The notes beneath the pieces were generated by a model. The model did not search any database and was not told the DNA's origin. It saw only the letters and a list, made by a program, of their open reading frames with translations. A program made the position numbers and the translations under genes. 64,000 bases of DNA from Shigella phage ChubbyThor, in sequence record OL615013; one strand, written 5' to 3'. This document shows, piece after piece, positions 3,686-54,443 of this stretch (positions within the stretch are counted from its first letter, which is position 1; every line of letters starts with the position of its first letter).

Positions 3686-4079
3686 AACCGCAACTACAGC
3701 CCCCGTTGATGACATCCAGGCGAAGGAGGAAGGTGTGTTACCCACCTACCTGCAACGCGCTGTGGACAACATACCTACAGGCGGGGATGGAGGCGTCGTC
3801 TACGCTGGCGGGTACGGTTGGGTGTGCGAATACCAAGACGGCACCAAAGAACTCCTTCAGGAGCTTCCAGGACTGGCGTCCACGCTGAAGCGTTATGGTC
3901 GCGACAAGTATGGCAAGCCGTTTGAGAAGGGCGCTGTCGTCTCCACCAACATTACTGCAGATACTCTGAACCTTCTGGGCGTGGACGACCTGAAGCTGCT
4001 GGCTGAACCTTTGGGTATCACAGTAGAAGATCGCATTACGTTGATTGCTCAACTGATCGAAAAATTGCAGATTAAATAA
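3654..4079 (+). CDS. Hypothetical protein
   Basis: ORF with strong SD (AGGAGAA, 6-nt spacer) before ATG 3654. Confidence 0.5.
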   Translation: MAKKPETKKVETATTAPVDDIQAKEEGVLPTYLQRAVDNIPTGGDGGVVYAGGYGWVCEYQDGTKELLQELPGLASTLKRYGRDKYGKPFEKGAVVSTNITADTLNLLGVDDLKLLAEPLGITVEDRITLIAQLIEKLQIK

Positions 4080-4108
4080 AGCAGTGTACAACAGCTGAAT
4101 TAATCTAT

Positions 4109-4501
4109 ATGGTTATCGTTGACGAAAGCAATCTGATAGAGTATGCCCTGAGGCATTACATTGTTGATTCTATCTCACGGGATGAGTTGCTGACAGACAT
4201 ACAGCGAATTTCGCTAATTAACCAATCATTGAAGAGATTTGTGCCTGGCAAGAGTCCAAGGCTCATATTGAATCAGCTGATCACTCTCTTCAATACGTTC
4301 GAAGCAGAAGCAGTCTGTCGTATGCTTGTGTTGAAAACGGATAAGTCTCAGCTTCCGCGCCTCAAGGCTGCTTTGTTGACGTTAGGCGTATGGCGTGATG
4401 ATTTATGTTCCGGTTCATACGAACCAGATAACGAGCTATTAATGGCTCTGAACAACGATTTGGGCGAGTGGAGGAAACCATGCCAACAATCACTGTATTA
4501 G
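4109..4501 (+). CDS. Hypothetical protein
   Basis: ORF in a co-directional block; no clear SD. Confidence 0.35.
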   Translation: MVIVDESNLIEYALRHYIVDSISRDELLTDIQRISLINQSLKRFVPGKSPRLILNQLITLFNTFEAEAVCRMLVLKTDKSQLPRLKAALLTLGVWRDDLCSGSYEPDNELLMALNNDLGEWRKPCQQSLY

Positions 4502-5289
4502 TAGCACCGGAAGTTGTTCGCAACAAACCGGAAACCGAGCGTCTGCACACCGTGACAGGCACTGCCAAGGGTTGGGAAAAGACCAGTCTTAACCAAGACC
4601 CTGACGAGATCCTGACCGAGTGTAAAGGCCTGGATGCACTTCTGACCAAGAGCAATCTTCAGGCTGATGGCGTGACCAAAGTTGATCCAACCAAGCCTAT
4701 CGGCTTCGAGATCTCTTACGAAATTCACGACCCAAGCGCCGTGCTGACCACTGGCCTGACCATCACCCCTGCTACTGCTGGTGGTGAAGTCGGTCAGGTT
4801 GTTGAACTGCTGGCGACCGTCGCTCCGGCGAACGCGACCTACCAGGGTGTCAACTGGTACTCTGGTGACATCACCAAAGCTGTACACATCGGCGGTGGTA
4901 AATTCAAGCTGCTGGCTCCTGGTTCTGTGACTGTGTACGGTGTTACCATCGAAGGTGGCCACACTGACTCCACGGTCATCACAGTGGCGGGTGCGCTGGC
5001 TCTGTCTACCGATCTGGCTGCTTCTCAGGATGTAACAGCAGGTGAAGACGCAACCTTCACCATCGCTGCTACAGGCGGCACCACCCCATACACATATGCT
5101 TGGTACTTCTCTGATGTCCCTGGCGGTGAAGGTGTGGTGATCGATGCTGGCGCTAACGCCACTGCTGCTACAGCAAGCCTGGTTATCACTGCAGTTGATG
5201 CCGCCGACGAGGGTGAGTACTGGTGTGTTGTTGAAGACGCCGACGGCCACTCTGTGACCTCCACCCGTTGTGAAATGGCTGTGGTCTAA
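4480..5289 (+). CDS. Ig-like domain structural protein (Hoc-like / Big_2-type decoration protein)
   Basis: GGAGG 5 nt upstream of ATG 4480; two Ig-like modules (VTWYSGD...; TFTIAATGGTTPYTYAWYF...EGEYWCVVED) typical of phage capsid/tail decoration proteins. Confidence 0.6.
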   Translation: MPTITVLVAPEVVRNKPETERLHTVTGTAKGWEKTSLNQDPDEILTECKGLDALLTKSNLQADGVTKVDPTKPIGFEISYEIHDPSAVLTTGLTITPATAGGEVGQVVELLATVAPANATYQGVNWYSGDITKAVHIGGGKFKLLAPGSVTVYGVTIEGGHTDSTVITVAGALALSTDLAASQDVTAGEDATFTIAATGGTTPYTYAWYFSDVPGGEGVVIDAGANATAATASLVITAVDAADEGEYWCVVEDADGHSVTSTRCEMAVV

Positions 5290-5291
5290 TC

Positions 5292-5522
5292 ATGAAGGGC
5301 TTCCAGGACTTTCTTGAAGACTCGGCAGCCCCTGGCACCACTACCACCGATGTGGGGAAACCCGAAGGTGGTATGGTGAAAGAGCCTGTCAAGAAGCCCA
5401 AGGATCTCGAGGAAGAACAAGAGCAGACCGACTTCCAAAAGATCTTTGGAAACATCTTCAAAGACCTCGACCTGAAGAATGCACGAAAGTGGAACTTCAG
5501 GACAGGCAAATATGAAGACTAA
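5292..5522 (+). CDS. Small charged protein with T4 internal-protein-like N-terminal leader (MKGFQDFLED)
   Basis: Starts 2 nt after the Ig-like gene stop; N-terminus resembles the T4 capsid targeting sequence MKTYQEFIAE; followed by a terminator. Confidence 0.45.
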   Translation: MKGFQDFLEDSAAPGTTTTDVGKPEGGMVKEPVKKPKDLEEEQEQTDFQKIFGNIFKDLDLKNARKWNFRTGKYED

Positions 5523-5546
5523 AAGAGGCTCCGGCCTCTTTTTCAT
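5523..5546 (+). terminator. Rho-independent terminator
   Basis: AGAGGC-TCCG-GCCTCT hairpin followed by TTTTTCATTT. Confidence 0.65.
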
Positions 5547-5610
5547 TTCCAGCATTCGGTGTATAATGGACCCGTTCCCCATGAGCGGAACCTAACTGAG
5601 GATACACCAA

Positions 5611-6123
5611 ATGCAATCCATGATCAAACGTAAAGTAGAAATCTCCCTGAATGCCCATGTTGAAATGATCCAGCAGCTTGTGTCTGACGCATATGAGATA
5701 CAAAAGGATCGCCAATCGAAGGGAGGCGTGATGGACCCCACCTGTCCCGGAAACATACTACACTATCGCATGCTGCGCTGGACTGGGCATACGGCTGCTC
5801 TGAAGAAACTGCTTTCTAAAAGATTCCAGGCCGAAAACGACGCCTATGTGTTTGGCGTCTTCCATAATTCGCGTGAACGCGATGCGCTCTTCTATCCTTC
5901 CCGCAACCCAAAGACAGGCGAAGAACTGCCTATCCCTGATGTCGACAAGGAAGAGAGCACGGCCACCATCGCCCATTTCATGGGCACGAATATCGATAAA
6001 GCAAACATCATCGTGTTCTCTGATACACTTCATGATCCGAAACGCTTGGCTGCCGCCCATGAAATGTTGCGCAATAGCCGCAGTGCTTTCACAAATTTGA
6101 CTTTAGTAGTGTTTCTGGGCTAG
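5611..6123 (+). CDS. Hypothetical protein
   Basis: ORF with GAGGA SD; perfect TATAAT hexamer at 5562-5567 upstream. Confidence 0.5.
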   Translation: MQSMIKRKVEISLNAHVEMIQQLVSDAYEIQKDRQSKGGVMDPTCPGNILHYRMLRWTGHTAALKKLLSKRFQAENDAYVFGVFHNSRERDALFYPSRNPKTGEELPIPDVDKEESTATIAHFMGTNIDKANIIVFSDTLHDPKRLAAAHEMLRNSRSAFTNLTLVVFLG

Positions 6124-6132
6124 ATAGTTACA

Positions 6133-6156
6133 GGGGAGGAAACTCCCCTATTTCCC
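6133..6156 (+). terminator. Putative terminator hairpin
   Basis: GGGGAG-GAAA-CTCCCC followed by TATTTCCC; lies between stop at 6123 and the RBS of the next gene. Confidence 0.45.
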
Positions 6157-6172
6157 TAACAGGAGGCGCACA

Positions 6173-6403
6173 ATGTACAAGTTCAGAATTAACAGAGAAC
6201 GTAATTCGTTCAAGTTCAGAATTAACAGAGAACGTAATTCGTTCAAGTTCGGTGTAGTCGCTGGAGTTTGTTTGTTCCTGGCGCTCGAAAGCGTTGTCAG
6301 CCTGCTTACAACATCACAAATGCAGGTGACTCGTTACCTACTTGCCATTATATTTTCTGCTGTCGGTTTACTCTGCTCCTATTTGGGGTGTGTGAAGAAA
6401 TAA
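6173..6403 (+). CDS. Small membrane protein containing an in-frame 11-codon tandem duplication
   Basis: AGGAGG 8 nt upstream of ATG; C-terminal two hydrophobic segments; N-terminal KFRINRERNSF repeated exactly. Confidence 0.45.
   Translation: MYKFRINRERNSFKFRINRERNSFKFGVVAGVCLFLALESVVSLLTTSQMQVTRYLLAIIFSAVGLLCSYLGCVKK
6178..6250 (+). repeat. Perfect 33-bp direct tandem repeat (2 copies plus 7-bp partial third)
   Basis: caagttcagaattaacagagaacgtaattcgtt at 6178-6210 and 6211-6243, then caagttc; in-frame inside the ORF. Confidence 0.9.
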
Positions 6404-6445
6404 ACTGGCTGCACACAGCAATACTTTGATTTGAGAAACTACATC

Positions 6446-6934
6446 ATGATGCTGTTAATGAGCGTTCCACAGAACAAGATGACCCCTGAAACAGAGGGTA
6501 AGAATCACTTCAACATCTACAGCCAGAGCCAAACGGAACTCGGGCGCTTCCTCTCGCATTTTGCCCATCATCCAGTGACTACCTATGAGCACGGCGTGTT
6601 CAACTCCATGGAAGGCTACTGGTATTGGCTAAAGTACAGGGATGACAACCTGCGCTTGCTCGACGGCTACGAAGCCAAGCAATATGGGCAGGGGTTGGCG
6701 GCCACTCGCATCGCTGTCCTTGATCCATCATCCGAAGAATTCAAGCGGGACATTCTGTTTGCCACCAGCATGAAACTCCAGACAATGCCCGACCTGCTGA
6801 AGATCAGATTGGCGTACAGTCGACTCCCTCTGATCCATGCATACGTTCGGAACGGGAAATATAGTTTTCAAAACTCTATGGACTATATCATTGCACACAT
6901 TAATCGTCTCCGCATACAAGGAACTCTGAAATGA
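6446..6934 (+). CDS. Hypothetical protein
   Basis: ORF-track start is TTG at 6431; first ATG at 6446 used. No recognised motif. Confidence 0.4.
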   Translation: MMLLMSVPQNKMTPETEGKNHFNIYSQSQTELGRFLSHFAHHPVTTYEHGVFNSMEGYWYWLKYRDDNLRLLDGYEAKQYGQGLAATRIAVLDPSSEEFKRDILFATSMKLQTMPDLLKIRLAYSRLPLIHAYVRNGKYSFQNSMDYIIAHINRLRIQGTLK

Positions 6935-7515
6935 AATTTATACACACCATCGTCGGCACTTCCTATGATTGCACCGCACACGAGCCAAACCGCTCGCCCG
7001 TGTTTGTTCTGAACAAACTGGGTGAAGAGATCTGTGAACTGTCTGATGTGTTTCATGGTATCGGCACAGCGTCCGAACCGTTGAATGGTGAAGTTGCTGA
7101 CGTCATTATCTCTGCCATTGACCTCCTGTATGTTATGGATTTCAATGACCAACAACTGCATGGTTGCATGACCAAAGAAGAGTTGGTCGACTCGGTTCAG
7201 ACACGTTTGGGGTTGTGTGGTGATTGTTCTCCCGAATATCTTGAAGCAGATTGGTTCCGCATTATCGATCGTGAACCCCAGAAGCATCTGAACCTCATTC
7301 ACCATTACCATGGCCGGATCATCCGATTATGCAATCAGCCTTATCGTAGCCAAGACATTCTAGAGAGGCTCGTTGCTAATTTGATCAAACATGTCGCACG
7401 GATGGCTTGCGGTGAAGGTGCCTTGCACAGCGTGAATATGTTGAGTACCCACATCAAAGTAGAGCACGCCATTGAACACAAAGTTGAAAAGTGGCGCATT
7501 AAATTTGGCCTATGA
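6931..7515 (+). CDS. Putative MazG-like nucleotide pyrophosphohydrolase
   Basis: AAGGAA SD; ATGA overlap with upstream gene; LGEEICELSDV...GEVADVIISAIDLL resembles the MazG EExxE/ExxD motif pair. Weak. Confidence 0.35.
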   Translation: MKFIHTIVGTSYDCTAHEPNRSPVFVLNKLGEEICELSDVFHGIGTASEPLNGEVADVIISAIDLLYVMDFNDQQLHGCMTKEELVDSVQTRLGLCGDCSPEYLEADWFRIIDREPQKHLNLIHHYHGRIIRLCNQPYRSQDILERLVANLIKHVARMACGEGALHSVNMLSTHIKVEHAIEHKVEKWRIKFGL

Positions 7516-8342
7516 AATACAAAATAATTTTGGATGCTCTTATACAGAGAGCAAAACTTCGAGGTAGAATGGAAGGCGTTTATCAAGAACGCCACCACAT
7601 AATCCCTGTGTGTTTGGGTGGAACCAACCATTTTTCCAACCTTGTGTGGCTCACGCCAGAAGAACATTATGTTGTTCATCACCTGCTTTGGAGGATAACC
7701 CCGCTTAACCCCGGAGTGAGGAAAGCTTGGACTGGGATGAACAACATGTCTAGGAGCAACAAAGAATTTGGGGAATTCAGGAGAAATAATTCCACCAGAA
7801 TGAAAGAAGTGATGTCATCTGATGAACAAAAGGAACGTTGTCGTAAGCAATCCAAGAAAAACTCATTGAACCCAGAAGTGCAGAAGAAACGTGCGGGTAG
7901 CTTGAGAGGTTACACTTGGGATGACGAATCAAGGCGCAGGTTGTCAAAATCCAGGAAAGGGATACCACACTCCGAAGCACACAAAGCCAACCTTACCAAA
8001 TCAGTCACCGAACGGATGAGGCGACCAGAAGAAAGGGAGAGGTATTCTGCTATGTGGCGCCAGAACAATCCCATGAATAACATACAACCTTGGGAACACC
8101 CGACTGTCGTAAAGACGGGTAAATCCCGACAATGGCTCCTGGCTGGTGAATTCTTTGAATGGTGGTGTGGTAACGGTGAAGACAAAGTGAAGAACCGTTA
8201 TTGTTTAATGTTGAAAGAAACCGGGTTAAGCTCTGTGTGTTCTAAGGCCACAGCTCAAACTTGTATATCTAAATTTCAGAAAGGTTGGATACCAAAAGAA
8301 GATCCCGCCTGGTTGAAATTTTACGGAGATAATAATGGTTGA
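7512..8342 (+). CDS. HNH homing endonuclease
   Basis: HHIIPVCLGGTNHFSNLVWLTPEEHYVVHHLL HNH motif; start and stop both overlap the neighbouring genes; paralogous to ORFs at 24926-25621 and 52872-53531. Confidence 0.75.
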   Translation: MKYKIILDALIQRAKLRGRMEGVYQERHHIIPVCLGGTNHFSNLVWLTPEEHYVVHHLLWRITPLNPGVRKAWTGMNNMSRSNKEFGEFRRNNSTRMKEVMSSDEQKERCRKQSKKNSLNPEVQKKRAGSLRGYTWDDESRRRLSKSRKGIPHSEAHKANLTKSVTERMRRPEERERYSAMWRQNNPMNNIQPWEHPTVVKTGKSRQWLLAGEFFEWWCGNGEDKVKNRYCLMLKETGLSSVCSKATAQTCISKFQKGWIPKEDPAWLKFYGDNNG

Positions 8343-10236
8343 TGTAAACAGAAAATACAAAAAGCTCTCACACATCGAGCATATACTCCTTCGCCCAGAG
8401 CGCCATCTGGGGAGTATCCGTTCTTCTGTCGGGTTGGCTTGGGTATATGATCTCAGCAAAGACAAAGTTGTATTTAAAGACAATTTTGAATATAACCCCG
8501 CTCTTATCAAACAGTTTGATGAAATCATCACCAACTGCGTTGACCACAGCAAGACGCCTGAGGGTAAATCCCTGACGGAAATCACTGTCACGGTTTCCCC
8601 GATGAACGGTCAAATCATCGTTGCTGACAACGGGGGCATCCCTGTGGTCAAGCATGAATCTGGTATGTGGTTGCCAGAAATGCTATTTTCGGAATTGTTT
8701 GCGGGATCAAACTTCAACGACGATGACGAAGAGTACAACAACCAGAAGTCTGGTGGCCAGAACGGTGAAGGGGCTTCGCTCGTCAACGTGTTCTCAAAGT
8801 GGTTCCGTGTTGCTACCAGTGACGGCAAGAAGTCTTATGCCCAGCTGTTTGAAGACAACATGAGCAAGAAGTCTAATCCGGTCATCAGCAATACGCCGAA
8901 AGAGTTCGGCACCACCATCGCCTGGATCCCTGACTATGCTCGCCTGGGCGTCAAAGGGCTTGACCAGAACAACCTGCTGATGATCTATCGCCGCGCGTTT
9001 GAAGTGGCTGCGTGTAACCCGCGCCTGAAGGTTGTGTTGAACGGGAAGCAAATCCGGATTGACCGCTTTGGTCACTTCGTTGATTACTTCCATGCTGGTT
9101 CCGCTGTTGATGAATCTGGTGAATGGTCGGTTGCTGTAGCCCCTTCATCCGGTACGTTCATGCACGCATCATACGTGAACTCTATTGCCACCCACATCGG
9201 TGGTCCTCACGTTGATTATGTCGCCGACCAGATCGTGGCTGCGATTCGTCCTCAGCTGGTGAAGAAGTTCAAGACCGAGCTGAAACCTGCCATGATCAAG
9301 AACCACATGTCCTTGTTCATTGCCGCCGACATCAACAACCCGCGCTTTGACAGCCAGACCAAGGAGCGCATGACCACTCCTGTAAGCCAGTTCGGTACGT
9401 CGTACAAGCCGAGTGACAAACTCATCCGCAAGGCGCTTGAGTTCGTTATGGCTGGTCTGAGCAAAGAACTGGCTTCCCTGCGCAATGAGCAGGATGATGC
9501 TGAGTTTGAAAAGGCCAAGAAGGATATCAGCAAGCGGGATTATCGTGAGATTGAGAAGTATTACCCGGCGACCGCCCGTGGTGACCGCAGTGGTTGCTCC
9601 CTGTTGCTGACAGAGGGTGATAGCGCCTCCAACCCTATCCTGAACGCCCGTGACACCAAGAAGATCGGATTGTTCCCGCTTCGTGGTAAGTTCATCAACT
9701 GCCTGAACGCCCCGCGCACAAAGGTGATGAACAATGAAGAGTTCAAGAACCTGTGTACGATTCACGGCGGCGCAGTGCCAGGCCAGCCCCTTGACATCAG
9801 CCGCTACCCACAGACTGTTGTGGCTACCGATGCGGACGATGACGGCATTCACATCCGTGGGTTGTTGATCACCCTGTATTGCACCTACTGGCCGGAGTAC
9901 GTCCGTCAGGGCAGGCTGAAGCTGCTGCGTACCCCTTACATGCGCGTGTGGTGTGGTAAGGTGATGCATGAGTTCATGAACAACGCCGAGTATGAGGAGT
10001 TCCTGAAGACACCTGATGCCAAGAAGATCACGAAGAAGAAATATCTGAAAGGTCTGGGCGGTAACAGCACTGAAGACTTCAAACGTATTCTAAACAACCT
10101 GGATGCGTATACTACGACGGTCACGCTGGACGATGGCTATCAACAGTCACTGAAGAATGGCTTCGGTGATGAGGCCGCCGATTACCGCAAAACCTGGTTT
10201 AGCGATGTTTGCCTGTTTGAAACTGAGGATGAATAA
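8335..10236 (+). CDS. DNA topoisomerase II large subunit (T4 gp39-type ATPase, fused gp60-like C-terminal part)
   Basis: GGAG SD; RFDSQTKERMTTP and LLLTEGDSA...FPLRGK blocks match recalled T4 gp39; GHKL ATPase N-terminus. Confidence 0.9.
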   Translation: MVDVNRKYKKLSHIEHILLRPERHLGSIRSSVGLAWVYDLSKDKVVFKDNFEYNPALIKQFDEIITNCVDHSKTPEGKSLTEITVTVSPMNGQIIVADNGGIPVVKHESGMWLPEMLFSELFAGSNFNDDDEEYNNQKSGGQNGEGASLVNVFSKWFRVATSDGKKSYAQLFEDNMSKKSNPVISNTPKEFGTTIAWIPDYARLGVKGLDQNNLLMIYRRAFEVAACNPRLKVVLNGKQIRIDRFGHFVDYFHAGSAVDESGEWSVAVAPSSGTFMHASYVNSIATHIGGPHVDYVADQIVAAIRPQLVKKFKTELKPAMIKNHMSLFIAADINNPRFDSQTKERMTTPVSQFGTSYKPSDKLIRKALEFVMAGLSKELASLRNEQDDAEFEKAKKDISKRDYREIEKYYPATARGDRSGCSLLLTEGDSASNPILNARDTKKIGLFPLRGKFINCLNAPRTKVMNNEEFKNLCTIHGGAVPGQPLDISRYPQTVVATDADDDGIHIRGLLITLYCTYWPEYVRQGRLKLLRTPYMRVWCGKVMHEFMNNAEYEEFLKTPDAKKITKKKYLKGLGGNSTEDFKRILNNLDAYTTTVTLDDGYQQSLKNGFGDEAADYRKTWFSDVCLFETEDE

Positions 10237-14713: not shown

Positions 14714-14947
14714 ATGAATCCTCGGGAAACTGCTATGACTACAGCAAGAAGTTACAGAAAGAACTTCAACATCGAAGGGATTGAGTTCTACCACCATTAC
14801 GCCCAGGACACCCATGGCACTGTATGCAACACATACATGCTTGACGGTCGCCCTGTAGGTTCCGATGAGTTCTATCGTGTTTTGCGCGAGTCTACAGAAG
14901 AATCCCTGTCTTACATTATCAATGCCAACGGATTGATTAAACCATGA
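14714..14947 (+). CDS. Hypothetical protein
   Basis: Small ORF, ATGA-coupled to the next gene. Confidence 0.35.
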   Translation: MNPRETAMTTARSYRKNFNIEGIEFYHHYAQDTHGTVCNTYMLDGRPVGSDEFYRVLRESTEESLSYIINANGLIKP

Positions 14948-15630
14948 TCAACGTATCAATAAACGACCGAGATTTCGTCCACGCTGTTATGACAAACAAC
15001 AAAGACCCTCTTGCGTACAACGGGGAGAAGGTTACTCTGTTCTGGTCAGGCGGCGTGGACAGCACGTACATGCTATTCTGGCTGTTGGCTCACGGGTACG
15101 AAGTTCACACGATCTACTGCGAACTGGAGAACAACTCCTTCAAGGTGAAGCGTGAGAACTGGTCGCGCAAGAAGATCAGGGAATGGGTGACCACAAATTC
15201 GCCGAGGTTGAACACTCATTGGCATCACAGAGAAACCCCGATCAGCAAAATGAGCATCCAGTCTGGTGAGTTCCGGCCTTGTCTGGCTCAAGCCCCTGTG
15301 TGGTTGGTGAACACCCAATTCGCGGGTGGCCATTTTGATCGAGGACTGCCAAGAACTTATGTGATGGCATACGTCAACGGAGACGACGCTCTACACTGGA
15401 TCCCTGCCTTCAACAAGATCGTGGAGGGTTATAACATGTTGGCCAAAGACGGGCATGAGATCACCGTTCTCTTCCCTCTCGCCAGCATGAAGAAGACATG
15501 GTTCTACGAAGCCTTGTCGCCAATCTACGGGCTGATGACCTGGTGTGAATATCTCGTTCTGAAAAAGAACTGTGAATGCCCCGCTTGTGTCCGCCACCGT
15601 CATGAACTTTCCGTGTTTGAGGGGAAATAA
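14944..15630 (+). CDS. PP-loop ATP pyrophosphatase (QueC-like; NadE-like not excluded)
   Basis: SGGVDS PP-loop motif (LFWSGGVDSTYML) near N-terminus; C-terminal Cys cluster C-x9-CxCxxC. Confidence 0.5.
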   Translation: MINVSINDRDFVHAVMTNNKDPLAYNGEKVTLFWSGGVDSTYMLFWLLAHGYEVHTIYCELENNSFKVKRENWSRKKIREWVTTNSPRLNTHWHHRETPISKMSIQSGEFRPCLAQAPVWLVNTQFAGGHFDRGLPRTYVMAYVNGDDALHWIPAFNKIVEGYNMLAKDGHEITVLFPLASMKKTWFYEALSPIYGLMTWCEYLVLKKNCECPACVRHRHELSVFEGK

Positions 15631-26418: not shown

Positions 26419-27849
26419 TCACCCATTATCCGACTCCAACAGGAACACGATGTTTTCGATGTATGCTTTTTGAATCGCATAGACTTCATCCAGCGTGTTG
26501 GCCACTTTCTTGTCAATACGGATTTCCGCAAGGCGTGGCAGGAACAATGACTTCAGCGCATCATCTGTCTTATCCTGTACGCCATTGGAGAGCACTGCGG
26601 CAATCTTGCCAATGTAGTCGCCCTGGTTCTCCCACATCCGGAGCCTCAGCTCATCTGAGATCCCTGAGACGCCAACAACAAGCAAGCCATCGGAAGTCTT
26701 ACACAGCAGGGAGCCAAAGGTCTTGGCGTGTTTGCCCTTCTTGTCGGCTTCGTTGAAACCAACAATTTCAAGGTCACACTCCACTTCCATCTTCAGCTTC
26801 AGACCTTCGGAAGAAGTCCCATCTTCCCACGGCATGTCGGCGGCCTTACAGATCGTGCCTTCTTCTTTACGAGCCAGCGCGTCTTTGAAGTGGTCGACAG
26901 CTTCGGCAAATGAGTGAACAACACGGGTTTCCTGAACCTGAACCAGCCCATCTTCTCCGTGGAACATTTGCATGATCATGTCGAAGCGGGTTTCATACGG
27001 TAGGTCTATGCGCTCGGCGTTGAACCATTTCTCATAAGGCACGACATCCCACACCCGATAGATCACCTGATAACGATCTTCCAGGGGTTCGCCAGTCTGA
27101 ATCACACTGTTGAGTTTGCCGTTACCGACAGCGCGAGGTAGGATAGAATTCGACTTGAGGTCAACAACGAGTAGTTCGCCATGGAACACGCTCTCACCAA
27201 TCCCCGTATCATAGATAATGTCCTTGAACACCAGTGACAGATTGTCAACCGAACCGCCTGCGATAAGGGAACCGGAGCGAGAGCGTATCTCAGGCTCTTT
27301 GTTGTAACGACAGATGATGTTGGCGAACATACCGTCTGACTTCAGCTGGCTGTAGACGCCGCGCTTGAAGTCCATCTTCTTCAGCAGGTCAATCGTCATG
27401 TTGTCATAACGATGATATGGAAGGATGTTGATCAGGCGGCCTGTACCCCCAGCTGCGTTGAATGCAGCGTTGATGCCCTTTTCAGCAATACCCGCCTTGA
27501 TATCACGGTCCAGGATCATCTGGATGAGTTCGTGGTATTGGGGATCCATCTTCAGGGCAACAGAGGCCAACAGGGCATCAGCCTTTTGACCACCGACAAG
27601 GCGCTGCGCCATCTGGTCGAGGACGTCATAGACTTCGCTGATGTCATCAGTCTTCTCACGGACGAGCATGCGAGGATACGCGCTGAGCTTCAACTCAGTC
27701 CGATAGAACGACGTCATTGGGTCATAGACATACTGCAGGAAGTCTACCAAGTCTGGGTTGTTCTTGAATGCTTCGGTCAGCACAGCTTTCTTCGCATTGC
27801 TGCCTTTGGTTTCGCGAAGTCGGTGAACTGTTTCGAGGATAGGGATCAT
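26419..27849 (-). CDS. ATP-dependent DNA ligase (T4 gp30-like)
   Basis: N-terminus ILETVHRLRETKGSNAKKAVL parallels T4 ligase ILKILNEIASIGSTKQKQAIL; adenylation motif LKSDGMFANI (KxDG); GGAGA SD. Confidence 0.85.
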   Translation of the reverse strand: MIPILETVHRLRETKGSNAKKAVLTEAFKNNPDLVDFLQYVYDPMTSFYRTELKLSAYPRMLVREKTDDISEVYDVLDQMAQRLVGGQKADALLASVALKMDPQYHELIQMILDRDIKAGIAEKGINAAFNAAGGTGRLINILPYHRYDNMTIDLLKKMDFKRGVYSQLKSDGMFANIICRYNKEPEIRSRSGSLIAGGSVDNLSLVFKDIIYDTGIGESVFHGELLVVDLKSNSILPRAVGNGKLNSVIQTGEPLEDRYQVIYRVWDVVPYEKWFNAERIDLPYETRFDMIMQMFHGEDGLVQVQETRVVHSFAEAVDHFKDALARKEEGTICKAADMPWEDGTSSEGLKLKMEVECDLEIVGFNEADKKGKHAKTFGSLLCKTSDGLLVVGVSGISDELRLRMWENQGDYIGKIAAVLSNGVQDKTDDALKSLFLPRLAEIRIDKKVANTLDEVYAIQKAYIENIVFLLESDNG

Positions 27850-27962
27850 GTGGTGTCTCCAGGGTTATATGTGCTGCTATTATAACCCTGGCGACTTCAA
27901 TAGATTATTGGCGGGTGCGGGATCTTGCCTGGCTGACGATGAGGTCAGTATGTAGTCCTCAG

Positions 27963-28304
27963 TTATTTCTTCGGGGGTTTAATGGAGGTGAAAGAATCCT
28001 TCCAACTCTTGAATTGTTCAACCAGAGCATCTTTACCCAGCTCGCCATTTGACACGCTGTGAACGTAGGCGAATGCTCCATAGCCGGATCCTGGCATAGC
28101 CTTGCAGATGCGCAGACTGACCAAAGACTCGCCCACAGAAACAAGGTAATGGTCGCGGCGATTGTTCATGGCATAGTGGTTGTCGTGAAACTTGTCGATA
28201 ACAACACAGTTCTGAGGTTCGACGTCAATCGGTAGCCCGTTGGCTTCGGATCCACCGCGCCCAAGCACGCAGCCTGGGAATAATGTTTCTACGAGTGTGG
28301 TCAT
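27963..28304 (-). CDS. Hypothetical protein
   Basis: AGAAGGAA SD 6 nt upstream. Confidence 0.45.
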   Translation of the reverse strand: MTTLVETLFPGCVLGRGGSEANGLPIDVEPQNCVVIDKFHDNHYAMNNRRDHYLVSVGESLVSLRICKAMPGSGYGAFAYVHSVSNGELGKDALVEQFKSWKDSFTSIKPPKK

Positions 28305-28358
28305 GGTCTGTTCCTTCTGTAAGTTCCCATGTATTATATGGGTGAATCGTTTAATGAA

Positions 28359-28709
28359 TTATTTGTTATGAAATCCCAGAGCCTTGCGGACTTCTTCACG
28401 GTGTTTCTGCTCTTTCTGAGCCTCTGTGCGATTAATCCGGCGCTTGTGGTGTCGGACAAGGGCTCTGTGCACAGCCTTGGCTTCATGGTGAGGCAGGCAA
28501 TCTGTGTTATAACCAATATCGACCGTGTAGCCCGAACAGCTGTTGACCGTGTAAGCATACACTTTGACGCCGTTATAGATCACAGCATCGATCCCAACCA
28601 GTCGCTCTCCGTTCCATTCAACGTCATCGGCGTCAATGGCATCGATTAGACAACGGATTTCGGCGCTTAGTGGTGGTATACAGAACAACCAGTTGATAAA
28701 CTTGATCAT
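28359..28709 (-). CDS. Hypothetical protein
   Basis: ORF in tightly coupled minus-strand operon. Confidence 0.4.
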   Translation of the reverse strand: MIKFINWLFCIPPLSAEIRCLIDAIDADDVEWNGERLVGIDAVIYNGVKVYAYTVNSCSGYTVDIGYNTDCLPHHEAKAVHRALVRHHKRRINRTEAQKEQKHREEVRKALGFHNK

Positions 28710-28710
28710 G

Positions 28711-28923
28711 TCACTTCCTCATCAGTGAGAGCAGGTTGACCACAGCCGGACGCGCATCAGGGGCGTAGAAGACGTCCTGAGAGTGCCTCTTACAGCACGG
28801 GCAATCCTTCGTGGCGATTACACAGGGAGCCTTGTCCACGGCAAATCCGGCGGCTTCGGCTTCCTTCACGGTGGTGAATGGCAGGTAAGCACTTGTGCCC
28901 TGCCCTCCGCATGAACATTCCAT
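28711..28923 (-). CDS. Small Cys-rich protein (CSCGG...CxxxxxxCPCC)
   Basis: TGATG-coupled to the upstream micro-ORF; 7 Cys in 70 aa. Confidence 0.4.
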   Translation of the reverse strand: MECSCGGQGTSAYLPFTTVKEAEAAGFAVDKAPCVIATKDCPCCKRHSQDVFYAPDARPAVVNLLSLMRK

Positions 28924-29039
28924 CAACGTTTCCTCTTAAAGGGGATGATCAGAGCTATGATGACAAGCATAGCTGTAATCACCCCGCATGCTATCAGACC
29001 AAAGGCGAACGACTTCAGAACAAACTCAATCAAATTCAT
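28923..29039 (-). CDS. 38-aa single-pass membrane micro-protein (not in ORF track)
   Basis: Hand translation MNLIEFVLKSFAFGLIACGVITAMLVIIALIIPFKRKR; ATGA overlap with upstream 398-aa gene and TGATG overlap with downstream gene. Confidence 0.3.
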   Translation of the reverse strand: MNLIEFVLKSFAFGLIACGVITAMLVIIALIIPFKRKR

Positions 29040-30229
29040 AACTTCCTCAATTTGGCTCTGGTGACCTGAGTTTGTTTAACGCCATTATACTCGGTCAGTT
29101 CTTTGACACGACCGCGGATGATCATATCGCCCTGCAGGAACTCGGTATCCATGTACGAGGTCTTCCAGGTAATTGTATTACCTTCTGCTGTTTTGAAAGT
29201 GAACAGGTAGCTGTCGCCGTATTCATTAGAGAAGAGGAAGGTACGCTTGTCAAACGTGACGCGGACTTCCAGCATTTCACCGACTTCTGCTACCCACTTG
29301 TTCTCCGTCTTGCGGTCGGTGCGAGGACGATGGATGTAATCGTAATATTTCTTGGCACCCCAACGGACTGTGTTATTGTCCTTGATGAGGTGGTAGCCCG
29401 GTTCGCACATGCGTTTCAGACGAACGTTGAACTCGTTGGATTCAGACAGCGCGCTGATGAAGAGCATCATGTGGTACATTTCTGACTCGGCATCTTCGCG
29501 ATATTCACGAGCCTTAATCAGAAACATCTCGGCATCAGAACCCGCCTTTGGCTTCTGCCCAGCACGCAGGTAGCCCAGCACCTGGTCAAACAGTTCTGAT
29601 TTGATGTCCACTCCGGCCAGCAGCACCTGGAAGCATGCACGCAAATAACCGTGGGTGTCCACGAAGCGTTCATTCCGGACGCGATAGATCCCCTCTGGGT
29701 CGTCTTCATCCGGCATGAAGAATTCGGTGATACCCAGATAGTAGGACATAATCGCATCAAGCGATTTCTGATGCGGTACGTAGTGATGCATGCAGGTGCT
29801 ACCAATCAGCATCTGGGTGTGGGTCTGCTCATTCTCAATCACATATGTGTTCTTGCGATTGATGAGCAGATTGCAGTGCTGGCACCAAGAAACGTTCTCC
29901 CCCTCGAAGCGGCGGATGAAGTCGGCATTGATGTTGTCAGACAGTTTGTTCAGGATGACCTTTGGGTATTCGTGATTGAACTGACCGATAATCTTCCATC
30001 CGCCGTAAGAAACCGGGCGGTCAATGCCTTCTCCTTCGAGGGTGACGGGTTTCCACCAGTGAGTGAGAATCTCACCAGTGATGTCACGGGTGTGGGTCTT
30101 GAAGGGTTCACCATAAGTCACAGTCGGGAACGGGACACCCAGCCTTTCGGCAGTGCGCTCGAGCTTCTTCAGCCGCTCAACGACCAGTTCTTCATTGTCG
30201 ATCGGAATGTTGAATGTTTTGGCGTTCAT
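29036..30229 (-). CDS. Hypothetical protein (398 aa)
   Basis: Start set at second ATG (MNAKTFNI) with GAGG SD; no recognised motif. Confidence 0.5.
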   Translation of the reverse strand: MNAKTFNIPIDNEELVVERLKKLERTAERLGVPFPTVTYGEPFKTHTRDITGEILTHWWKPVTLEGEGIDRPVSYGGWKIIGQFNHEYPKVILNKLSDNINADFIRRFEGENVSWCQHCNLLINRKNTYVIENEQTHTQMLIGSTCMHHYVPHQKSLDAIMSYYLGITEFFMPDEDDPEGIYRVRNERFVDTHGYLRACFQVLLAGVDIKSELFDQVLGYLRAGQKPKAGSDAEMFLIKAREYREDAESEMYHMMLFISALSESNEFNVRLKRMCEPGYHLIKDNNTVRWGAKKYYDYIHRPRTDRKTENKWVAEVGEMLEVRVTFDKRTFLFSNEYGDSYLFTFKTAEGNTITWKTSYMDTEFLQGDMIIRGRVKELTEYNGVKQTQVTRAKLRKL

Positions 30230-40957: not shown

Positions 40958-42004
40958 TTAGTTAGACTTGAGATACTGCTCGAAGTCGTCAATGGAAGCC
41001 GTGTTCTTGGCATCCGGTGTAGACTGAGACTGAATTTGAGTCTGAGTCTGTGACGGCGCGGCCTGCTGTTGTTTCAGGCTGTCTTGAGCAGTTGGCTGCT
41101 GGTTGACGGGCTGCTGGTGAGCAGTCTGGGTGTTAGGGGCATGTGCCATCGTGGCCGCACCACCTTCAACCAGAGGCTGGCCATCAGGGATTGCCAGAAC
41201 TTTACGCAGACGCTTTTCCAGAGAGTCGTAGTCTTTGAAGTTAGCCGGATTGAAGAATTCAAACAGGCTGTGTTCACGAGACCACACGTCTTCCATGTAG
41301 GCTTCGTCGTCGCTCAGTGGAGCCGGAGCAGCCCAACTGACGTTGGAGAAGTTGGCCACCAGACCTTCCCAGTTCCCAAACTTCTTCTGCTCACCAAAGA
41401 GCTTCAGGTTCAGGTTGGCACCTTCCCACAGATCGAACGGATCGAATTTAGGGTCGGTTGGGAATTTCGGGTTCTGCGCCTGATCCAGGATTTTCTTGAT
41501 GGCGTTACCAAACTCCAGCAGGAAGACCTTGCCGTTGTTTTCCGGTACGTTGGCATCGTTGATCACCAGGATGTTGGCGTAGTATTTGGTGTCAGGCAGA
41601 CGTTTCTTCAGGATGTCCTTCAGCTTTTCGTCGTTCGTTTCTTTCTGCTGCGCCCACAGCGGACGGTCATGGTCGCGCACCGGATCGTCGTTGCCGAACG
41701 TCTGAGGTGAGTTCTCAATGTACCAACCACCAGGTCCCTGGAACTGATGCTTCATGATCATGGCGCAAGGGGTCAGGATCTGATCTTTATCGATCGTTCC
41801 TTCTTCCTGTGCCTTGATGTCTACCAGTGGGACTGGCAGGAAGCGGATGGTGTTCTCGGAGATGCCATCTTTGTTCCAAGTCCATTTCCAGATGCGAGGA
41901 TCCTTCTGGAAGCCGGACTTCTGGCCTTGCTGTGCAAGACGCGCCTGCATTGCGTCAGCTTGCTGACCACGGGACGCTTTCAGACGATCGAATAAATTAC
42001 CCAT
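40958..42004 (-). CDS. Single-stranded DNA-binding protein (T4 gp32-like)
   Basis: IRFLP, NNGKVFLLEFG and WEGANLNLKL parallel T4 gp32 IRFLP, NEGKVFKYRFG, WEGANFVLKV; acidic C-terminus; AGGAA SD. Confidence 0.85.
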   Translation of the reverse strand: MGNLFDRLKASRGQQADAMQARLAQQGQKSGFQKDPRIWKWTWNKDGISENTIRFLPVPLVDIKAQEEGTIDKDQILTPCAMIMKHQFQGPGGWYIENSPQTFGNDDPVRDHDRPLWAQQKETNDEKLKDILKKRLPDTKYYANILVINDANVPENNGKVFLLEFGNAIKKILDQAQNPKFPTDPKFDPFDLWEGANLNLKLFGEQKKFGNWEGLVANFSNVSWAAPAPLSDDEAYMEDVWSREHSLFEFFNPANFKDYDSLEKRLRKVLAIPDGQPLVEGGAATMAHAPNTQTAHQQPVNQQPTAQDSLKQQQAAPSQTQTQIQSQSTPDAKNTASIDDFEQYLKSN

Positions 42005-53531: not shown

Positions 53532-53600
53532 GATTAGTCTCGGAACATATTATACGCCGCCCTCGTAGATTGAAGGCGGCGGGGAGTGTTGGTGAGTTAC

Positions 53601-54443
53601 TTAAATGTCGTACAGATCGTTGACTTCCAGCATCAGGCGGGTGAAGTCACCACGCCCGTTGCGGTCGGACTTGTCGAATTCGATGATACTGAACGGCTGG
53701 ACCCATTCAGGGTACTCATCACCGACACCAACACCATCGATCTTCAGAGTTCCGGCCTCCAGCTTGGCGTTGAAGTCGCGGAAGGAACCGACGTACCTTT
53801 CCAGGGCGCTATCACGCAGGCGCTTGTTGGACTGTTTGATGTCACCGTTGACAAAGATGTAGGTTGAATCAGATGCGCGGGTCAGCAGGTTCTTCAGCTG
53901 CTCCATATCGCATTCTTGGGCTTCTTCGATGATCAAGAAGGTGTCGTCAAAGGTCATCCCCTTGATGGTCTCCAGATCCTGGATCTCGATGATCCGCTTC
54001 TCCCACAGGTAGTTGAAGAAACCGTCGCTGCCAGTATCGGTCTTCAGCACCTTCTTCAACGTCTGAATCAGGGGCATCAGGTATGGCATGAGCTTTTCGT
54101 ACGTGTCGCCAGGACGGAAGCCTGCTGTCTGACCTGTTGGCAGCGGAGAGCGCGTGATGACGATCTTGCTGACAACTTTATCGATCAGTAGCTTGGCGGC
54201 GGCTGAGGCACCACAGTACGATTTACCTGTACCAGCAGGACCGATCGCGATGGTGAGGTTTTCTTCAAGAGCAGATTGATATGCGAGGTTCTGATTCTCT
54301 GAGAGGCCATTGAACGGAGCGATTCTAAAGTCACCTTTGGAGAACTTCATCCAGTCATCTTCTTTCTGAACAGTCTCCTTCTTACGTGCTGACTTGGTCT
54401 TGCCCGCTGGCTTCATACTTACAACTTTGGTGGCAGATTGCAT
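53601..54443 (-). CDS. phoH: PhoH-like ATPase
   Basis: Walker A GPAGTGKS and PhoH-type downstream motifs; start set at ATG 54443 with AGGAAGG SD. Confidence 0.85.
   Translation of the reverse strand: MQSATKVVSMKPAGKTKSARKKETVQKEDDWMKFSKGDFRIAPFNGLSENQNLAYQSALEENLTIAIGPAGTGKSYCGASAAAKLLIDKVVSKIVITRSPLPTGQTAGFRPGDTYEKLMPYLMPLIQTLKKVLKTDTGSDGFFNYLWEKRIIEIQDLETIKGMTFDDTFLIIEEAQECDMEQLKNLLTRASDSTYIFVNGDIKQSNKRLRDSALERYVGSFRDFNAKLEAGTLKIDGVGVGDEYPEWVQPFSIIEFDKSDRNGRGDFTRLMLEVNDLYDI

Follow-up and report, generated by a model that had tools for sequence, protein, structure and literature searches.

A recent, probably slippage-derived 33-bp tandem duplication in a small membrane protein gene of Shigella phage ChubbyThor

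Introduction

Shigella phage ChubbyThor (record OL615013) carries, in the stretch of 64,000 nucleotides that we analysed (the window, to which all positions refer unless stated), an open reading frame for a small membrane protein of 76 amino acids (6173–6403, plus strand) with a perfect 33-bp tandem repeat near its start. We consider it highly probable that this repeat is one very recent in-frame duplication, formed by slippage at the heptamer CAAGTTC and probably neutral or mildly deleterious, in an accessory membrane gene of early type. It is an ordinary mutation and not a new biological system, that is, an unrecorded length allele of a catalogued but uncharacterised phage gene family, produced by a textbook mutational mechanism.

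ChubbyThor is an Agtrevirus (Ackermannviridae, Aglimvirinae) which over 25 kb shares 96.9% identity with Shigella phage vB_SboS_Gloob and 96.3% with phage Ag3. The membrane-protein ORF is orthologous to Ag3 orf009.1/gp009 (YP_003358496.1), whose product of 65 amino acids is annotated as a hypothetical membrane protein. It belongs to PHROG family 4835 (phrog_4835, function unknown; E = 1.3e-29), with residues 14–76 matching positions 1–63 of the 63 in the profile, so that the profile covers everything beyond the first repeat unit. The ChubbyThor gene is thus the duplicated allele of a gene that normally encodes 65 residues.

Results

The ORF is preceded by the Shine-Dalgarno sequence AGGAGG (6161–6166, plus strand), as an earlier reading made from the sequence only had noted; it lies 6 nt before the ATG and is kept in relatives. 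Its product begins MYKFRINRERNSFKFRINRERNSFKFGVV and reads in full MYKFRINRERNSFKFRINRERNSFKFGVVAGVCLFLALESVVSLLTTSQMQVTRYLLAIIFSAVGLLCSYLGCVKK. Tandem Repeats Finder places an array at 6178–6250 with a period of 33, 2.2 copies, 100% matches, 0 indels and a score of 146, which confirms the perfect in-frame 33-bp tandem duplication described in the sequence-only reading. The array occupies codons 3–26, and it is one of just two tandem repeats scoring at least 40 in the whole 64-kb window, the other being much weaker; with 40 consecutive matches at period 33 it is beyond chance in 64 kb. Copy 1 (6178–6210, plus strand) can be regarded as the unit that is extra relative to all relatives and falls in a 33-column gap in Ag3, Gloob, SKML-39 and SW16-7, although which copy is called new is arbitrary; copy 2 (6211–6243, plus strand) was delimited by Tandem Repeats Finder and by alignment to relatives. 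The bases CAAGTTC that follow (6244–6250, plus strand) had been described as a 7-bp partial third copy. They are indeed present, but we reread them as the third occurrence of a 7-bp microhomology (the others being 6178–6184 and 6211–6217), and specifically as the downstream microhomology that would have generated the duplication. Each 33-bp unit also contains the inverted repeat GAACG-TAATT-CGTTC (6197–6211, with a second copy at 6230–6244), found by a site scan and folding, and the exact 24-mer across the junction is TTCGTTCAAGTTCAGAATTAACAG. A minus-strand ORF of 32 amino acids (6148–6246) was set aside as a by-product of the repeat, because the pattern of substitution fits the plus frame.

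When the gene is aligned with those of Gloob, Ag3, SKML-39 and SW16-7, one 33-column gap appears in all four relatives, and apart from this gap there is no other difference from Gloob, Ag3 and SKML-39. Once one unit is removed, ChubbyThor matches Gloob without a difference for 331 bp on the left of the ATG and 542 bp on its right (873 bp), and Ag3 for 100 + 542 bp, the whole genomes differing from these two phages by 3–4%. The 33-bp insertion is also the largest indel in approximately 48 kb of the ChubbyThor–Ag3 alignment. The complete lack of substitutions over 873 bp relative to Gloob, taken with the absence of the second unit from relatives, indicates that the duplication is private and very recent, and it appears to post-date the common ancestor with Gloob. 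The earlier suggestion of a recent duplication is thus borne out, with Ag3, Gloob, SKML-39, P46FS4 and MK-13 having exactly one unit and being otherwise identical.

The single-copy allele contains CAAGTTC twice, exactly 33 bp apart, coding for K-F at residues 3–4 and again at 14–15, and it is this pair that points to a slipped-strand event. The longest run of period-33 identity is these 7 bp (CAAGTTC) in the alleles of Ag3, Gloob, SKML-39, P46FS4 and LIMEstone1. Most alleles, which lie outside the Ag3 and LIMEstone lineages, have a period-33 identity of only 3–5 bp and would therefore be unable to slip in the same way. An ancestral direct repeat spaced by the length of the unit and a seamless junction, both of which are found here, are the marks of a microhomology-mediated tandem duplication, and we infer slippage as its mechanism. 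Starting from an ancestral gene with two CAAGTTC direct repeats 33 bp apart, a single slipped-strand mispairing of the heptamers (copy slippage) would yield the perfect 2.2-copy array, and a hairpin formed by GAACG-TAATT-CGTTC between the heptamers might bring them together and so favour slippage. The peptide KFRINRERNSF would thereby be added at the far end of a predicted cytoplasmic tail, leaving the first 38 nt of the ORF unchanged and one complete native tail next to the first transmembrane (TM) helix, so that the duplicated protein has most likely kept both its membrane insertion and its function.

The sequence-only reading had also proposed that the array might be a hotspot for repeat-number variation, and the comparison of copy number across relatives speaks against this. 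When 111 nt across the array are used as the query, just 75–78 nt align, corresponding to a single copy, in 34 of 34 matching phage records, and the exact 76-residue sequence has no match among 15 billion proteins or in a gene-position index (153 billion gene positions). No change in copy number was seen among approximately 45 distinct protein sequences on approximately 320 contigs, a count made up of 17 cluster representatives and every member of 11 inspected clusters, whose members are 61–65 amino acids long except for one 42-residue frameshift product. The same was true of the 12 representatives from a profile search of 1.84 billion proteins and of the family loci in IMG/VR, where five of five are single-copy. 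A degenerate DNA pattern for the junction peptide NSF/KF[RK]IN, which is highly degenerate and matches by chance, gave 45 matches in IMG/VR, none of them a family member by local tblastn, which is a true negative; in the metagenome and genome collections the pattern gave at least 120 chance matches each, which are uninformative on copy number. Across these three collections, none of the 285 pattern loci listed held a family member by local tblastn. Copy number at contingency or phase-variable loci is polymorphic among related strains, and such polymorphism was not found here. From what is generally known of slippage and recombination, the two-copy allele, with 40 bp of perfect direct homology, should be unstable, with collapse or expansion far readier than in its ancestor.

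The profile search of 1.84 billion representative proteins returned 12 matches, the intact ones being 63–66 amino acids long and sharing a common plan: a basic tail of 14–16 residues ending in F-x-L/F-G, TM1 with an Asp or Glu in mid-helix, a short loop, then R-F, TM2 and two basic residues at the C-terminus. The ChubbyThor protein departs from this plan in length, with 76 residues and a tail of 27 residues to the conserved Gly, and is the sole outlier on the long side among the approximately 45 distinct family sequences. Since the excess is fully explained by one 33-bp duplication, its membership of the family by descent is not in doubt. The locus resembles Ag3 orf009.1 in its position, DNA (except for the 33-bp unit), ribosome-binding site, TM hairpin, C-terminus, upstream hairpin and promoter, and differs in encoding 76 rather than 65 residues, with an N-tail of 27 residues as opposed to the 14–16 of every other family member. 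In the Kuttervirus CBA120, the RefSeq annotation holds only an internal fragment of 42 amino acids, whereas the full ORF of 63 amino acids lies at 7181–7372 of that sequence (our locus L303) and matches the membrane-protein family with an hhalign probability of 97.5% (E = 6.6e-12), which extends the PHROG 4835 family to both Ackermannviridae subfamilies. Like the ChubbyThor protein, CBA120 gp009 and Det7_155 have a basic tail (with NSFKLG in CBA120), two TM helices, a terminal KK(I), the same flanking genes and the hairpin; unlike it, they are only about 36% identical and CBA120 is without the repeat. In the Gloob record the gene is unannotated.

Among 10 distinct DNA alleles of the gene, pairwise dN/dS was 0.07–0.3 at dS up to approximately 2, from which it follows that the gene is translated and under selection; on this pattern of substitution it appears to be a real gene held by purifying selection. 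The first 16 codons, with a dN/dS of approximately 0.1, are under constraint no weaker than that on the TM hairpin, and the segment ERNSFKFG is invariant in Aglimvirinae. Synteny is likewise kept, the order being histone-like gene, hairpin, membrane gene, orf010-like gene, MazG-like gene and topoisomerase II, and even the most distant members retain DUF7207, an Ig-like protein, an 87-residue ORF, the histone-like gene, the membrane gene, and the orf010-like and MazG-like genes in this order. In ChubbyThor the histone-like DNA-binding protein gene (5611–6123, plus strand; phrog_4164, E = 1.2e-82, and the annotation of Ag3 orf009) is the first of the transcription unit, and the conserved ORF downstream (6446–6934, plus strand), which is the ortholog of Ag3 orf010 (phrog_652, unknown function), is always syntenic with the membrane gene. 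A reading of this downstream ORF as NADAR/YbiA-like found no backing in Pfam or PDB sequence searches.

The two hydrophobic helices noted in the sequence-only reading have their cores at residues ~26–46 and ~55–74. Hydropathy, alignment and the AlphaFold2 model agree on a predicted TM1 (6248–6310, plus strand) with a conserved acidic residue (E/D) in mid-helix and a predicted TM2 (6335–6394, plus strand) followed by a C-terminal KK. In the 76-residue protein the N-tail carries a net charge of +7, the loop +1 and the C-terminus +2, a distribution that by the positive-inside rule predicts both termini to be cytoplasmic. The topology check that had been suggested earlier thus gives, from hydropathy and charge, two predicted TM helices in an N-in/C-in arrangement, as a putative hairpin protein of the inner membrane with the basic N-tail and the KK predicted to lie inside. 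The anticipated lengthening of a basic, presumably cytoplasmic N-terminus also holds, as the duplication adds 11 residues and raises the net charge of the tail from +4 to +7. AlphaFold2, run on an alignment of 18 sequences, predicts a two-helix hairpin (helices at residues 2–45 and 48–74) with moderate confidence (mean pLDDT 69.6), and a Foldseek search of this model, a bare helical hairpin of moderate confidence, against BFVD gave 0 matches at E ≤ 0.001, an outcome that is uninformative for so simple a fold. A PDB sequence search found no relative of the membrane protein, Pfam had no family above threshold (sub-threshold matches to GtrA and a cation-ATPase being generic TM noise), PADLOC returned nothing for the gene, and in PHROG only family 4835 was significant at E ≤ 0.01, with just weak families of unknown function up to E = 10. 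Readings of the N-terminus as a lipobox or a Tat signal were rejected, the former since Val precedes the Cys and CBA120 does not share this Cys, and the latter since there is no RR motif. The amphipathicity of the N-tail is not significant, with 74% of shuffles having an equal or higher hydrophobic moment.

The upstream transcription unit appears to end at a terminator-like hairpin read from the sequence, AGAGGC-TCCG-GCCTCT followed by a T-run (5524–5543, plus strand), which is near-invariant between Aglimvirinae and CBA120 and has compensatory stem changes in the distant relative L305. It is followed by a putative sigma70-type promoter, TTTTCA-16-TATAAT (5540–5567, plus strand), predicted in silico as the likely early promoter of the operon. 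This site has 10 of 12 matches, is the best promoter-like site in 4000–8500 and is ~100% conserved across the subfamilies; indeed, the whole block of ~120 bp before the histone-like gene (T-run hairpin, promoter and 5'UTR hairpin) is almost invariant between Aglimvirinae and CBA120, and its stems show compensatory changes in a distant relative. An identical promoter sequence is independently listed for Ag3 as Porf009, among a handful of putative early promoters (Table S2 of PMC3121705). The same table gives the stem-loop between orf009 and orf009.1 as a rho-independent terminator, Torf009, of −15.4 kcal/mol (PMC3121705). Its ChubbyThor counterpart, GGGGAGG-AAA-CTCCCCT followed by ATTT (6133–6153, plus strand), was recognised by folding and is a probable leaky terminator or attenuator; a hairpin stands at this position in four lineages (including CBA120, L305 and L307) with differing stem sequences. 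As this hairpin stands only ~20 nt before the ATG, with no further promoter-like site in that interval, the membrane gene is most simply expressed by read-through. Its transcription would begin early, at the conserved sigma70-type promoter in front of the histone-like gene, and pass through the weak terminator, so that less of the membrane protein than of the histone-like protein would be made. Only two copies of the T4 late promoter motif TATAAATA are present in the 64-kb window (39945 and 59816), neither of them near the membrane gene, and a literature search on Ackermannviridae transcriptomics found nothing relevant.

Several phages of Dickeya have lost the gene. In JA15, a deletion of ~463 bp relative to LIMEstone1, with breakpoints at a short imperfect repeat, runs from the 3' end of the histone-like gene through the hairpin and the whole membrane gene into the start of orf010, and the same 890-bp footprint is found in phiD3, phiDP23.1, Ds5CZ, Ds9CZ, Ds16CZ and Ds20CZ. 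In Coodle, an independent 101-bp deletion between two 8-bp TTGTTCCT repeats shifts the frame inside the gene. Both Coodle and the JA15/phiD3 group are viable Dickeya phages isolated as lytic, and phiD3 is described as lytic in the literature (PMC4581121). These losses in viable lytic phages indicate an accessory factor that is dispensable for plaque formation; the protein thus appears, from the distribution of the gene, to be conserved in nature and yet dispensable. The events in Coodle and JA15-type phages have breakpoints at short direct repeats in common with that in ChubbyThor (7 bp in the latter), but they destroy the gene, whereas in ChubbyThor one in-frame unit is gained and the protein is preserved.

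Discussion

Granted that the duplication is real, it is very probably neutral or slightly deleterious, which we judge from its being the most conservative lengthening possible, in a gene that can be lost outright. The strict conservation of length at 63–66 amino acids means that a tail longer by 11 residues could be non-neutral, and a change of function through the longer tail is a minority possibility. That the duplication is adaptive, the more basic tail (+7 as opposed to +4) altering activity, partner binding or insertion kinetics and having been selected in the host or during propagation, is in our view unlikely. Constraint on the protein is strongest in the N-tail, with its low dN/dS and the invariant ERNSFKFG, which does suggest that the tail is functionally important; moreover, the two-copy allele is fixed in the consensus in spite of its expected instability. 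Tail charge can also matter greatly in small phage membrane proteins, since one extra N-terminal positive charge converts a holin into an antiholin, as in lambda S107/S105 and phage 21 S71/S68. Against this, the duplicated allele stands alone among ~320 contigs, the family has kept its length through deep divergence, Dickeya phages can do without the gene and nothing in the 64-kb window points to selection. That the allele occurs in no other genome would be expected if it had arisen as an artefact of sequencing or assembly, or were a minority variant taken into the consensus, with the real phage carrying the 65-residue allele. We give this very little credence, as the 73-bp array would fit within one short read, assemblers are more prone to collapsing repeats than to expanding them, the duplication is in frame and exactly what slippage at a pre-existing 7-bp microhomology predicts, and two further natural microhomology events have occurred in the same gene. 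Those two events, with the present one, amount to three independent microhomology-mediated rearrangements in a gene of ~200 bp, and together with the 40 bp of perfect direct homology in the current allele they could be taken for a programmed contingency or hypervariable locus, whose copy number is routinely varied to tune the protein. Yet relatives provide no copy-number variant, even though at least nine distinct phages (Ag3, Gloob, SKML-39, MK-13, P46FS4, LIMEstone1, RC-2014, phiDP10.3 and Kamild) independently carry an identical precursor with both heptamers, most alleles have no comparable microhomology (3–5 bp only), and the other two events are gene-destroying deletions and not changes in repeat number, making such a locus extremely improbable. 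There is a slim chance, to our minds, that these three events mark the gene as a recurrent target of microhomology remodelling by virtue of a host-dependent accessory role, the longer basic tail being an adaptive change- or gain-of-function allele; if true, this would provide a natural allelic series for assigning function to an orphan protein found throughout the Ackermannviridae. An accessory role of this kind might be, for example, superinfection exclusion, defence evasion or control of lysis timing, with its cost and benefit flipping between hosts.

The remaining question is whether the protein could be the missing Ackermannviridae holin, class II-like with two TM domains, in which case the duplication would alter the timing of lysis as the sequence-only reading had suggested. 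In its small size and its two predicted TM helices with a predicted N-in/C-in topology it would resemble class II holins and pinholins (phage 21 S68/S71) as well as lambda S105/S107, and in these proteins N-terminal positive charge tunes function. The Ag3 genome paper, which found neither holin nor lysin, named gene 9.1 among five small TM-domain proteins that 'could' be holins on the basis of size and number of TM domains (PMC3121705), and one UniRef entry, for the ortholog in phage YX22, is named 'Holin'. No holin has so far been assigned in Ackermannviridae, our literature search for an identified one having found none and later papers still reporting no holin in Kuttervirus, and the endolysin, being soluble, would need one. 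However, neither Pfam nor PHROG shows any holin family homology even at E ≤ 10, and beyond TM2 there is just KK and no hydrophilic, charged C-terminal domain as in class II holins. The endolysin lies ~46 kb from the membrane gene (~54 kb and ~7 kb, respectively, in PQ306799); it is annotated as a soluble PG-binding muramidase without TM neighbours, and an Rz-like spanin is elsewhere, at ~74 kb in PQ306799 and hence ~67 kb from the membrane gene. Instead, the gene belongs to a DNA-metabolism block and has a predicted sigma70 early promoter in front of it, which would make it early where a holin would be late. Lysis does not seem to require it, as the JA15/phiD3/Ds*CZ group lacks it altogether and Coodle has only a frameshifted copy, all of these phages being lytic isolates, although lysis in these gene-less Dickeya phages may proceed through another, redundant holin. 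This dispensability and the missing holin features argue against the 'holin' label, and we regard the identification of the protein as the holin as quite unlikely; a role in lysis timing is, on the same grounds, weakened and appears unlikely. With a predicted early promoter and read-through, an early accessory membrane factor, a class that includes superinfection-exclusion proteins and host-membrane modifiers, seems more likely than a holin. Early inner-membrane proteins of the T4 Imm type offer a parallel, in that they too are small, have two TM helices, lie in an early region, are dispensable for lytic growth and are conserved in nature, although this likeness is a functional analogy only, with no detectable homology (the PHROG search returned no match to Imm, 4835 being the only significant family).

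For our preferred reading of a single recent slippage event, the importance of the duplication is small as it stands. It does provide a clean natural tandem duplication at a 7-bp microhomology with the precursor preserved in sister genomes, and the duplicated allele can serve both as a handy strain marker and for following how often slippage and reversion occur in a T4-like replication system. The annotation of the gene is also sharpened, in that the family is present in both subfamilies, the CBA120 fragment and the Gloob omission can be put right, the gene is assigned to an operon predicted to be early, with a conserved attenuator hairpin in front of it, and its dispensability counts against the 'holin' label that crept into UniRef.

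Putative regulatory sequences around the membrane gene

The histone-like gene of ChubbyThor (5611-6123, plus strand) is preceded by a block of ~90-120 bp (5521-5610) that combines a sigma70-like promoter with two hairpins, one terminator-like and accompanied by a T-run, the other in the 5′UTR and having the sequence GTTCC-CCATGAGC-GGAAC. Between the Aglimvirinae and the Kuttervirus CBA120 this block is almost 100% conserved, far above the adjoining coding DNA, and in a distant relative (L305) both stems carry compensatory changes and the loop CCATGAGC is retained. Because near-100% conservation is combined with compensated stems around an unchanged loop, the sequence suggests that the block is a structured regulatory leader.

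Between the stop codon of the histone-like gene and the ribosome binding site of the membrane gene (6173-6403, plus strand) there is a stem-loop at 6133-6153, which appears as Torf009 in the publication on Ag3 (PMC3121705). It is found in four lineages with differing stem sequences, its counterparts being at ~7143-7162 in CBA120 (L303), at ~2187-2215 in the distant relative L305 and at ~513-529 in L307. This element is likely to be a leaky terminator or attenuator that would hold expression of the membrane gene at a lower level.

On the 3′ side of the membrane gene lies a conserved ORF (6446-6934), the ortholog of Ag3 orf010 (phrog_652), whose product contains the motif FLSHF...F.S.EGYWYWLKY. 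A resemblance of this motif to NADAR/YbiA-type domains was supported neither by Pfam (E <= 0.1) nor by a PDB sequence search.

Natural loss and annotation of the membrane gene

In Dickeya Limestoneviruses the membrane gene has been removed or frameshifted by two independent natural deletions. One, of ~463 bp, occurred at a short imperfect repeat (~1050-1059 in JA15, L308) and is common to phiD3, JA15 and the Ds*CZ phages, while the other, of 101 bp, lies between TTGTTCCT repeats in Coodle (L309, ~924-931). The JA15-type deletion reaches into the histone-like gene and into orf010 as well, truncating both, and therefore all three genes are dispensable in those phages.

Public records of the orthologs contain annotation errors. 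Specifically, CBA120_gp009 in RefSeq is a 42-amino acid fragment with its start called at an internal ATG, the full 63-amino acid ORF (L303 7181-7372) being the family ortholog; the 65-amino acid gene of Gloob (L001 2074-2271) is not annotated; and the YX22 ortholog carries the unsupported UniRef name 'Holin'.

As regards lysis genes, those of Agtrevirus for the endolysin and the Rz-like spanin (53565-54359 and 74218-74544, respectively, in PQ306799.1, L304) are scattered in the style of T4. The endolysin comprises a PG-binding domain and a muramidase, without a TM or SAR segment. No TM segments were found in the ORFs flanking it, and the 50-100 kb stretch of this genome contains no annotated holin.

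Mosaic differences from Ag3 and Gloob

An HNH homing-endonuclease gene (7512-8342), with ~94% identity to F-LimI of Dickeya phage LIMEstone1, has been inserted so that it separates the MazG-like gene from the topoisomerase II large subunit gene, overlapping both. The closest relatives, Gloob and Ag3, have a 50-bp gap at this site instead, a typical mobile-element mosaic difference. A segment of ~900 bp (14714-15630), which is missing in Ag3 and has 100% identity to its Gloob counterpart, codes for a 77-amino acid ORF and a 228-amino acid PP-loop ATPase with an SGGxDS motif and a Pfam QueC match above the gathering score (E = 1.8e-6). It occurs in only seven phage records, among them CAU_YEP3 and EspM4VN, in which it is annotated as 'QueC-like', and may bear on the modification of bases in DNA or tRNA. 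Conversely, ~1.65 kb of Ag3 (27619-29273) is missing from the window at ~27946-27951; according to the Ag3 annotation it includes several small membrane-protein ORFs (orf046-048), wholly or in part, together with most of the e.6-like orf049, and is a further mosaic indel, in a small-membrane-protein cluster. Finally, an in-frame 15-bp insertion relative to Ag3 (41098-41112), which makes an imperfect tandem (GGCTGCTGGTTGACG followed by GGCTGCTGGTGAGCA), may represent a second, older slippage-type duplication.
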